Source of the DNA: Promethearchaeota archaeon
GTDB lineage: Archaea > Asgardarchaeota > Lokiarchaeia > Sigyniarchaeales > SOKP01
Direction: 5' to 3'
Length of the DNA stretch: 64,000 nt
NCBI GenBank assembly: GCA_016839915.1
Contig: JAEOTH010000028.1
Location: 15,433 to 79,432 of the forward strand
Position numbers and translations under genes: made by a program. Shown here one piece after another: positions 1,913 to 2,118 of the stretch. The notes beneath the pieces are model-generated. The model was not told the DNA's origin. It saw nothing but the letters and a program-made list of their open reading frames with translations, and did not search any database. The number at the start of each line of letters is the position of its first letter. Within the stretch, counting starts at the first letter, position 1.

Positions 1913-2118
1913 ATGACCGAAAATAAATTCACTCGAACTAAATGTCCACAGTGCGGAAATGAGAATCCACGTAAGCTTCACGAGGAGCCAGACAAAAATA
2001 ATGTGCTATACTACAGTATAGGTAAGGTTATTTCAACCTACCGCTGAAGCAGGGCACTCCTGTCTATGTTAAGAATATGAAGTGTGGTGGATGTGGAAAT
2101 GTTTTTAAAAAGGATTAA
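1913..2118 (+). CDS. small four-Cys zinc-ribbon protein, interrupted by a 29-nt intron (join 1913..2019,2049..2118)
   Basis: Exon 1 [35 protein letters not shown], exon 2 (-1 frame) ..[22 protein letters not shown]; joined length 177 nt = 58 aa + stop. Confidence 0.6.
2020..2048 (+). other. putative bulge-helix-bulge (BHB) intron in mRNA, 29 nt
   Basis: Central helix CAGT(2014-2017)/GCTG(2043-2046), bulges ATA(2018-2020) and AAG(2047-2049), inner hairpin GGTA(A)GGTT-ATTTC-AACCTACC; removal restores frame. Confidence 0.7.

Follow-up and report, generated by a model that had tools for sequence, protein, structure and literature searches.

Positions 1913 to 2118 on the plus strand of the 64-kb stretch analyzed here (the window; 29.7% G+C), which comes from contig JAEOTH010000028.1 of a Lokiarchaeia-type archaeon, very probably form a single functional gene for an Asgard-specific zinc-ribbon protein of 58 amino acids (aa), split by a 29-nucleotide (nt) archaeal-type bulge-helix-bulge (BHB) intron at 2020-2048. 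Such an intron had been proposed in a first-pass annotation, and we consider this interpretation supported with high confidence. In total, six BHB introns validated by homologues were found in four genes within the 64 kb.

The ATG at 1913 starts an open reading frame (ORF) of 44 codons, which reads to NNVLYYSIGKVISTYR and ends at the TGA stop codon 2045-2047, while the second CxxC half is encoded in frame +2 (equivalent to -1), which ends at 2118. Both features had been annotated in this way before and are present where they were placed. In silico deletion of 2020-2048, i.e. of the segment that the proposed cuts would remove, yields one 58-aa CxxC...CxxC ORF, as had been claimed. Exon 1 (1913-2019) thereby encodes Met1 to Ser35 with the first CxxC knuckle (C11, C14) and contributes AT to the codon of Met36, and exon 2 (2049-2118) adds the last base of this codon, Gln37 to Asp58 with the second CxxC knuckle (C48, C51), and the TAA stop codon at 2116-2118. 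The predicted spliced junction reads GCTATACTACAGTAT/GCAGGGCACTCCTGT or, in a shorter form, CTACAGTAT/GCAGGGCAC.

The position of the junction is defined by homologues. With the spliced protein, 52 relatives were found, all of them from Asgard archaea where the organism is named (Lokiarchaeota, Promethearchaeota, Thorarchaeota). Alignment with uninterrupted homologues, which had been suggested as a check, was positive: Asgard proteins of 55-58 aa, 70-81% identical over the full length, continue across the predicted junction without interruption and then into KCGxCG. A second group of homologues with 42-44 aa ends with ...VLYYSIGKVISAYR followed by the stop and represents the same intron translated through in other genomes; in every assembly the zinc-ribbon product is annotated as such a truncated 42-44-aa ORF. 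A scan of the GTDB species representatives gave 95 relatives, 80 of which were examined as loci. In 52 GTDB loci exactly one ATG codon is located between ...YYS and QG, and eight (L055, L073, and L075-L080) carry a 29-nt insert at the position identical to that of the window, in the following termed site 1. Together with contigs encoding the truncated proteins, 17 distinct site-1 intron sequences were obtained from independent sources, namely NCBI metagenome-assembled genomes (MAGs) including the closed chromosome CP070831.1 (source of L073), JGI, ENA, and Logan. Also, 124 distinct intron-less junction regions were collected, and the junction peptide is identical to that of the spliced window protein in more than 120 Asgard homologues. 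In these contigs, as in the window, the zinc-ribbon gene is located downstream of genes for a flavin reductase and a shikimate kinase, and therefore the site-1 loci are orthologous. As no fusion other than that of AT (2018-2019) with G (2049) produces the Met36 codon, homology allows a single junction, and this coincides with the canonical BHB cuts. In agreement, an exhaustive enumeration of BHB-type cut pairs showed that only 2019/2020 combined with 2048/2049 restores the family protein, both in the window and in all 17 site-1 loci.

In archaeal pre-tRNA introns at position 37/38, each strand consists of a helix, a 4-nt central strand, a 3-nt bulge, and again a helix, and is cut after the second base of the bulge. 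The motif around 2020-2048 follows this geometry. The pairing of CAGT (2014-2017, exon strand CAGU) with GCTG (2043-2046, intron strand GCUG) that had been claimed for the central 4-bp helix was borne out as C-G, A-U, G-C, and U.G, and all 17 sequences form it, with the variants CG/UG and UG/CG/UA. The helix is accompanied by two opposite 3-nt bulges, each located 3' of its strand and found as annotated: AUA at 2018-2020 with the predicted cut 2019/2020, and AAG at 2047-2049 with the predicted cut 2048/2049. The inner hairpin at 2021-2042 likewise has the form described before (GGUA-(A)-GGUU paired with AACC-UACC around the loop AUUUC; in DNA letters GGTAAGGTT / ATTTC / AACCTACC), and its helix comprises 8 bp, for which 93% of the cells are paired among the 17 sequences. 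An outer helix is formed between the exons, with the 5' strand GUGCU (2003-2007) plus CU (2011-2012) in exon 1 and the 3' strand AG (2051-2052) plus GGCAC (2053-2057) in exon 2. Of all cuts, only those after the second base of the bulges reproduce the ...YYS-ATG-CAG... of uninterrupted homologues, and canonical cuts likewise restore the homologous protein for nine further introns. A covariance model of the site-1 introns (R1) matches 2014-2049 with 61 bits.

The structure is maintained by selection on base pairs. For the covariation counts, alignment A2 with 17 sequences and 19 pairs was used. Standard pairs occur in 96% of the cells, compared to 23-49% when the partners are slid by 1-3 columns; changes on both sides were found in 7 of the 19 pairs (14 cells), and the covariation score was reached by none of 500 shuffles. 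In the inner helix, five of the eight pairs show compensatory double changes, such as G-C/A-U at 2021/2042 and C-G/U-A/U-G at 2028/2036, while the central helix shows compatible changes only. The U.G pairs 2017/2043 (15 of 17 sequences) and 2007/2053 (17 of 17) are possible only in the sense RNA and thus argue for a structure at the RNA rather than at the DNA level.

These data bear on the possibility that the mRNA stays unspliced and that ribosomes bypass the 29 nt or shift frame over them, as in gene 60 of phage T4. The two cases resemble each other in that the coding sequence is interrupted by a short stretch that is not translated and holds a stop codon and a stable hairpin. However, the gene 60 bypass acts at the ribosome and uses matched take-off and landing codons, and neither feature fits the zinc-ribbon junction: such matched codons are absent, and a Ser-tRNA landing on AGC 2048-2050, the sole downstream AGY codon, would give the wrong frame. 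Also, the split Met codon (AU/G) does not exist in the unspliced RNA, covariation of exon with intron bases in the central helix has no role in hopping, and the nine further inserts of 30-37 nt described below, from the zinc-ribbon family and from genes for uS3, uL11, and a membrane protein, have nothing in common but the BHB geometry precisely at the junction. Translational recoding is thus very unlikely.

Since the truncated 42-44-aa ORF is what all assemblies annotate, one might also assume a decaying pseudogene or a neutral insertion after which the full protein is no longer expressed; that the two halves are unrelated ORFs or a decayed pseudogene had been listed in the first-pass annotation as an outcome that would refute the intron. 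This is contradicted by 17 distinct, diverged intron-bearing genes with both exons intact. In the 17 spliced genes, the ratio of nonsynonymous to synonymous differences per site (pN/pS; NG86) amounts to 0.053 in exon 1 and to 0.11 in exon 2 (spliced frame), at a pS of 0.65-0.73, i.e. with synonymous sites near saturation, and all 17 spliced ORFs are open. Low pN/pS values in both exons exclude a decaying pseudogene, and as far as selection on codons can tell, they show that exon 2 is translated in a frame that only splicing would supply. Furthermore, the insert is far more conserved than synonymous sites (mean pairwise p-distance of the intron 0.195), and similar inserts are present in the genes for uS3 and uL11, which are essential ribosomal protein genes. 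We therefore consider a pseudogene hardly credible.

Beside site 1, relatives of the zinc-ribbon gene carry BHB introns at four more sites located within about 12 nt of each other, so that the family has at least five insertion sites within about 30 nt and up to two introns per gene. Numbered according to the window protein, site 2a at Tyr42 (phase 1) is occupied in L055 (31 nt, 3154-3184). Site 2b at residue 43 (phase 2) is occupied in L063 (30 nt, 3123-3152), L064 (30 nt, 3037-3066), L074 (32 nt, 3123-3154), L110 (30 nt, 1626-1655), L172 (33 nt, 1623-1655), and L173 (31 nt, 328-358). At site 3 (residue 44, phase 2) there are 30-nt introns in L075 (3155-3184), L168/L169 (1661-1690 in L168), and L171 (1769-1798), which also carry site 1, and at site 4 (residue 45, phase 1) introns of 31 nt in L174 (1631-1661) and of 36 nt in L175/L176 (1628-1663 in L175), the latter being an in-frame read-through annotated as the 68-aa protein P0038. 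The canonical BHB cut gives back the family consensus at every further site (L055, L063, L064, L074, L075, L110, L168, and L171-L175). Across these sites, changes in the exon strand of the central helix are matched in the intron strand (UUAU/AUAA, UUAU/GUGA, UUAU/GUAA, GUAC/GUAC, GUAC/GUGC, UGCA/UGCA, CUAG/CUAG). Model R1 also matches the second intron of L055 (29.5 bits, E = 1.3e-7), which is a paralogous copy of the site-1 intron located at another CAGUAU/A 46 nt downstream. In a rough neighbor-joining tree of the adjacent shikimate kinase, carriers of site 1 mostly form one clade, and carriers of sites 2b and 4 are scattered singly among intron-less relatives; this pattern suggests one old gain and several recent gains, or many losses. 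An apparently split shikimate kinase gene in L174 was rejected as an intron case, as the split is a scaffold gap of Ns. In two genomes, tandem paralogous copies of the zinc-ribbon gene lie about 300 nt apart (L017, 3001-3600; L028, 3001-3590).

The paralogous copy at the second CAGTAT/A site of L055, the polymorphic presence of introns among close relatives, and short direct repeats flanking some inserts, such as TGTACAAA in L110, could also be taken as marks of a mobile element acting at the DNA level (a miniature transposon or an excised segment), whose RNA fold would be incidental. Site 1, however, lacks terminal inverted repeats and target-site duplications, the G.U pairs are strand-specific to the sense RNA, and compensatory changes keep RNA helices including those built partly of exon bases. 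Palindromic central helices together with AAA bulges account for the direct repeats. A DNA-level element is therefore highly improbable; mobility of the intron itself, e.g. by reverse splicing, is compatible with a BHB intron and does not compete with it. The chance that the insert is an assembly or sequencing artefact of the window, for which nothing beyond the general error rate of MAGs speaks, is negligible, as independent projects and assemblers recovered the same insert in 17 distinct sequences, one of them from a closed chromosome.

Several observations weigh against the proposed intron. The minimum free energy structure calculated with RNAfold contains the central helix, the 5' bulge, and the inner hairpin, but it also pairs CU 2011-2012 with AG 2048-2049 and thereby shortens the 3' bulge, and the fold of the region has a z-score of just -1.46. 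Irregularity is seen in the outer helix, which starts with an A.C mismatch beside the 3' bulge, continues with 2 bp and an internal bulge of 3 nt, and ends with 5 bp. The majority of its pairs also form in the 124 intron-less genes, because conserved codons fix them. Only the pair 2005/2055, with both bases at third codon positions, is free; it is formed in 13 of 17 intron-bearing and 44 of 124 intron-less genes (p ~0.002, uncorrected for phylogeny). The motif is thus best described as a slightly relaxed hBHBh' motif and not as the textbook form. Minimal BHB cores occur 3410 and 3290 times on the two strands of the window, compared to 3310-3819 in Markov simulations; as such cores are at chance frequency in DNA of about 30% G+C, the motif alone proves nothing. 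The exact 12-pair architecture is found at 3 of 127,928 window positions (1.4e-5 expected from base composition), and it gains significance because this rare architecture coincides with the sole junction compatible with the homologues. In addition, splicing is predicted here from sequence comparison. None of 10 exact spliced proteins looked up in a collection of 15 billion proteins was present, a result that is uninformative rather than negative, and genes for the tRNA-splicing endonuclease EndA and the ligase RtcB were not identified for this genome, with no search aimed at EndA made. The RNA 3'-phosphate cyclase RtcA, which is not the ligase, is encoded in the window at 21015-22055. A self-splicing group I or group II intron is ruled out by the length of the insert, 29 nt compared to ribozyme cores of hundreds of nt, and an Rfam scan of the window had tRNA-Sec as the only match.

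For the processing of the transcript, we propose the following mechanism. In the pre-mRNA, the exon bases CAGU would pair with GCUG at the 3' end of the intron, so that the central 4-bp helix is flanked by the bulges AUA and AAG on opposite strands, with the inner 8-bp hairpin on one side and the irregular exon-exon outer helix on the other. EndA would cut after the second base of both bulges, and an RtcB-type ligase would join the exons and thereby create the AU/G codon of Met36. Through the resulting +1 shift of the frame, the second CxxC knuckle would come to be translated, and the unspliced RNA would give only the 44-aa fragment with one knuckle. While the roles of EndA and RtcB are inferred, the motif at homology-defined junctions, the compensatory changes in the helices, and the selection on the exons in the spliced frame were found here. 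Asgard archaea have been reported to possess a broad-specificity (alpha-beta)2 EndA bearing the L1 loop; in TACK archaea, the (alpha-beta)2 type accepts relaxed BHB motifs, and it is associated with pre-mRNA introns (PMC5829648). Also, in some Asgard lineages 92-95% of the tRNA genes contain introns, often several per gene and at non-canonical positions (PMC11291895).

Five more introns were discovered in the window via broken conserved genes and coding-potential maps, two each in the genes for the ribosomal proteins uS3 and uL11 and one in a gene for a small membrane protein. The uS3 gene is located on the minus strand from a GTG at about 48067 to the stop at 47204, and its unspliced frame reads PGLVIGK[YEVISTY(stop)LK]...[NLFSNRKPS(stop)L]PQIEVEEV. 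Intron A (47868-47897; 30 nt, in frame with a stop) shows the exon strand UGGU, the bulge AAG, a hairpin with the loop AUUUC, the intron strand GCUA, and the bulge AAA, and its removal gives VIGK/GGKRI (predicted junction GTCATTGGTAA/AGGCGGTAAGCG). Intron B (47779-47808; 30 nt, containing an in-frame stop) has the central helix UGGA/GCUA (3 bp and A.G), the bulges AAA and AUU, and a strong outer helix UUUGGGC/GCCCCAAA, and gives GLE-M-PQIEV (GGGCTGGAAA/TGCCCCAAATTG). Spliced uS3 aligns gaplessly with uS3 of Thermococcus and Pyrococcus. Compared to the uninterrupted Asgard protein P0056, the alignment is gapless over both junctions with 97% identity in the N-terminal 140 aa; over the BLASTP alignment the identity is 84% with the sole gap in the acidic tail at the C-terminus. 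Only the BHB cut (A/UG) predicts the Met at the second junction, which is matched in P0056. In other genomes, the second uS3 intron is read through in P0096 and leads to truncation in P0164 (38 member sequences). An alternative 37-nt intron at 47868-47904 was rejected, as it gives the wrong protein.

The uL11 gene extends on the plus strand from a GTG at 12588 to the stop at 13155 and has a middle exon of only 21 nt. Intron A (12638-12674; 37 nt) has the central helix UGGG/CCCA and the bulges AGU and AAU, and its removal gives VTGGS/ASGG (predicted junction ACTGGTGGGAG/TGCATCAGGAGG). Intron B (12696-12731; 36 nt) has the central helix GCCU/UGGU (3 bp and U.U), the bulges AUU and AAA, and the outer helix GGGCC/GGCCC, and gives GGPPI/GPSVGP (GGGCCGCCTAT/AGGCCCCTCCGT). 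The spliced uL11 of 164 aa aligns with the uninterrupted P0176 (...ALVTGGSASGGPPIGPAIGPTGINI...) at 92% identity and without gaps. Truncated uL11 annotations of 141-150 aa were found on the same contigs as the intron-bearing zinc-ribbon genes L075 (130,168 nt), L076 (29,620 nt), and L170 (460,779 nt).

In the small membrane-protein gene (plus strand, ATG 53209, stop 53519-53521), a 31-nt intron is located near the 3' end at 53456-53486. It consists of the exon strand UCGA, the bulge AGC, the hairpin UAUCU-(A)-CUGC UUAUC GCAG-AGAUA, the intron strand UCGA, and the bulge ACA, an architecture like that of site 1, in which a stem is followed by a single bulged A, a second stem of 4 bp, and a loop of 5 nt. 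Intron removal gives ...TTPAPVPLE/ELEEELAAEEE(stop) and restores the conserved acidic tail ...PVPLEELEEELAAEEE (predicted junction CCACTCGAAG/AATTGGAAGAGG); a predicted junction-spanning peptide is ALVTGGSASGGPPIGPSVGPTGINIK. The uninterrupted homologues P0309, P0300, P0307, and P0310 match the junction, e.g. with ...TTPAPVPLEELEEELAAEE..., and the homologues P0296 and P0297 seem to be truncated, or to be read through, close to this position.

In a scan of the window, 2014-2049 was the sole match of model R1; therefore, the introns of the uS3, uL11, and membrane-protein genes are not recent sequence copies of the site-1 intron. Structure-only searches of the window for more introns (minimal cores; hairpins of at least 7 bp combined with ORF fusion; a stricter descriptor) gave no excess over Markov or random controls, with 7 candidates passing compared to 13 expected and 128/140 compared to 119-165. 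Structure alone cannot find such introns in DNA of 30% G+C. Genes for RtcA (at about 22076, minus strand) and uL1 (at about 13162, plus strand) were rejected as intron-split, as TTG start codons explain their 5' ends, and a BHB-like match in the uL14 gene at 46188-46225 was rejected, as its excision would delete the conserved ADNSGAK motif. Apparent GTG or TTG starts, which mimic 5' truncations or intron-split starts, are present in the genes for uS3 (GTG, 48067), uL11 (GTG, 12588), uL1 (TTG, about 13162), and RtcA (TTG, about 22055). For uS14 (about 43900-44075, minus strand), no ATG, GTG, or TTG is present in the frame downstream of the previous in-frame stop, and a GTG is found shortly upstream, displaced by one base from the frame; this 5' end could be due to a rare start codon, a frameshift, or some other kind of processing.

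The spliced zinc-ribbon protein contains two CxxC pairs, as typical for a zinc ribbon, and C11, C14, C48, and C51 are invariant in alignment A1. An AlphaFold model with a mean predicted local distance difference test (pLDDT) score of 81.5 has strands at residues 22-34, 40-48, and 54-56, and the intron junction corresponds to the turn (residues 35-39) of the long beta-hairpin. The top matches of a fold search were weak zinc ribbons (MqsA, Rpb9), none of them significant. For the window protein, the best Pfam match was CxC5 with 20.5 bits, below the cut-off of 26.9 bits, and the best NCBIfam match was S27ae with 22.7 bits, below the cut-off of 54 bits; the homologue P0032 is just above the CxC5 cut-off with 27.6 bits. 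The sole significant relative with a solved structure is the C-terminal domain of the Lokiarchaeota gelsolin 2DGel (PDB 7whg_G, residues 288-333, E = 6.7e-8), a homology that hints at a link to the Asgard actin-regulation toolkit. From these comparisons, the protein appears to be an Asgard-specific small zinc-ribbon protein.

Upstream of the gene, a TATA-like A/T-rich element ATAATTATAA read from the sequence at 1885-1894 (plus strand), about 20-28 nt 5' of the ATG, is a possible archaeal promoter for an independent transcript that may have a short leader or be leaderless. Directly 3' of the stop codon, two oligo-T tracts at 2126-2148 (plus strand; T9 at 2126-2134, T10 at 2139-2148) look like an archaeal terminator and may act as one. 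A scan of the region for bacterial-type promoters and terminators was uninformative, as the host is an archaeon. Immediately 3' of the zinc-ribbon gene, 2405-4576 (plus strand) encodes a SIR2-like protein with TPR repeats of 723-739 aa, whose architecture recalls defence or NAD-depleting effectors. Elsewhere in the window, genes for uS19 and uL22 (50002-51073) are parted from uS3 by about 1.9 kb of unrelated ORFs (136, 71-95, and 152 aa; 48248-49587, minus strand). These ORFs may represent an insertion, because uS19, uL22, and uS3 are normally contiguous in the archaeal ribosomal protein operon. A tRNA-Sec gene at 28597-28689 (minus strand, anticodon TCA, 60.1 bits with Rfam) is the only tRNA gene found in the window; its presence indicates that the organism uses selenocysteine.

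The closest known case is the BHB intron in the pre-mRNA of cbf5, which encodes a pseudouridine synthase, in Desulfurococcales and Sulfolobales. A cbf5 pre-mRNA intron of the BHB type in Crenarchaeota was reportedly described by Watanabe and co-workers in 2002. Both cbf5 and the zinc-ribbon gene show a lineage-specific presence or absence of introns, and both are mis-annotated by gene callers as truncated or frameshifted. Unlike cbf5, the zinc-ribbon intron resides in an Asgard host (Lokiarchaeia, 'Promethearchaeota') and in a gene for a 58-aa zinc ribbon, with up to two introns per gene, at least five sites in about 30 nt, four affected genes in 64 kb including ribosomal ones, and a duplicated intron copy. 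Also, splicing of cbf5 has been confirmed experimentally, whereas that of the zinc-ribbon intron is predicted from comparing sequences. For genes other than cbf5, archaeal pre-mRNA splicing is unconfirmed according to Yokobori et al. 2009 (PMC2738675). No report on BHB introns in Asgard protein-coding genes was found in the literature searched, which is no proof of absence elsewhere.

BHB introns of archaeal tRNA and rRNA genes, said to have been treated by Marck and Grosjean in 2003, share with the present ones the 4-bp helix between 3-nt bulges and the cuts after the second base of the bulges. As in Thermoproteales and in the Asgard lineages Atabeyarchaeia and Freyarchaeia (PMC11291895), there are relaxed variants, lengths of tens of nt, and several introns per gene, and for the tRNA and rRNA introns of those lineages gain and transposition have been proposed. 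Here, however, the substrate would be the coding region of an mRNA, in which excision has to be exact to the nucleotide to retain or restore the frame and splicing competes with translation. With HAC1 and XBP1 of eukaryotes, the introns would share independence from the spliceosome and the use of protein enzymes, a short mRNA intron whose removal changes the frame (26 nt in XBP1), joining of the ends by a tRNA ligase or RtcB, and cut sites set by RNA secondary structure. HAC1 and XBP1 differ in that the endonuclease is Ire1 instead of EndA/TSEN, paired 7-nt stem-loops are recognized instead of a BHB motif, and splicing is stress-regulated. The mechanism is accordingly of a known kind, and what is new is the Asgard host and the scale: genes can hold more than one intron, ribosomal protein genes are among those affected, insertions cluster at a hot spot, and one intron has been duplicated.

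The finding also has practical consequences. In these genomes, gene callers truncate uS3, uL11, and small proteins, with public fragments of 42-44 aa, 78 aa, and 146-150 aa, and such truncated gene calls affect marker-gene phylogenies and completeness estimates for Asgard MAGs.

Beyond the window, we find it moderately likely that mobile BHB mini-introns of 29-37 nt have spread genome-wide into the protein genes of one Lokiarchaeia-type clade. This reading is favored by the six introns that four genes hold within 64 kb, at least five sites in a gene of 58 codons, the paralogous copy in L055, and very close relatives that differ in their introns, such as the one with an intron-less uS3 of 97% identity in the N-terminal 140 aa. 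Until now, BHB introns have been a curiosity among archaeal protein genes, and the window adds comparative evidence for six of them and for a hot spot of gain. If the spread is real, enzymatic, spliceosome-independent mRNA splicing would be routine in this clade even for essential ribosomal protein genes. The introns found here offer a natural system for studying the spread of BHB introns by reverse splicing or transposition, and they bear on how tRNA-ligase-dependent mRNA splicing as in HAC1/XBP1 originated. The eukaryotic host is believed to have arisen from the Asgard lineage, and a genome-wide spread would mean that interrupted protein genes are widespread in those archaea that are nearest to eukaryotes. 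The case would demonstrate that split protein genes, together with precise enzymatic splicing of mRNA, can be frequent in a prokaryote whose transcription and translation may be coupled.

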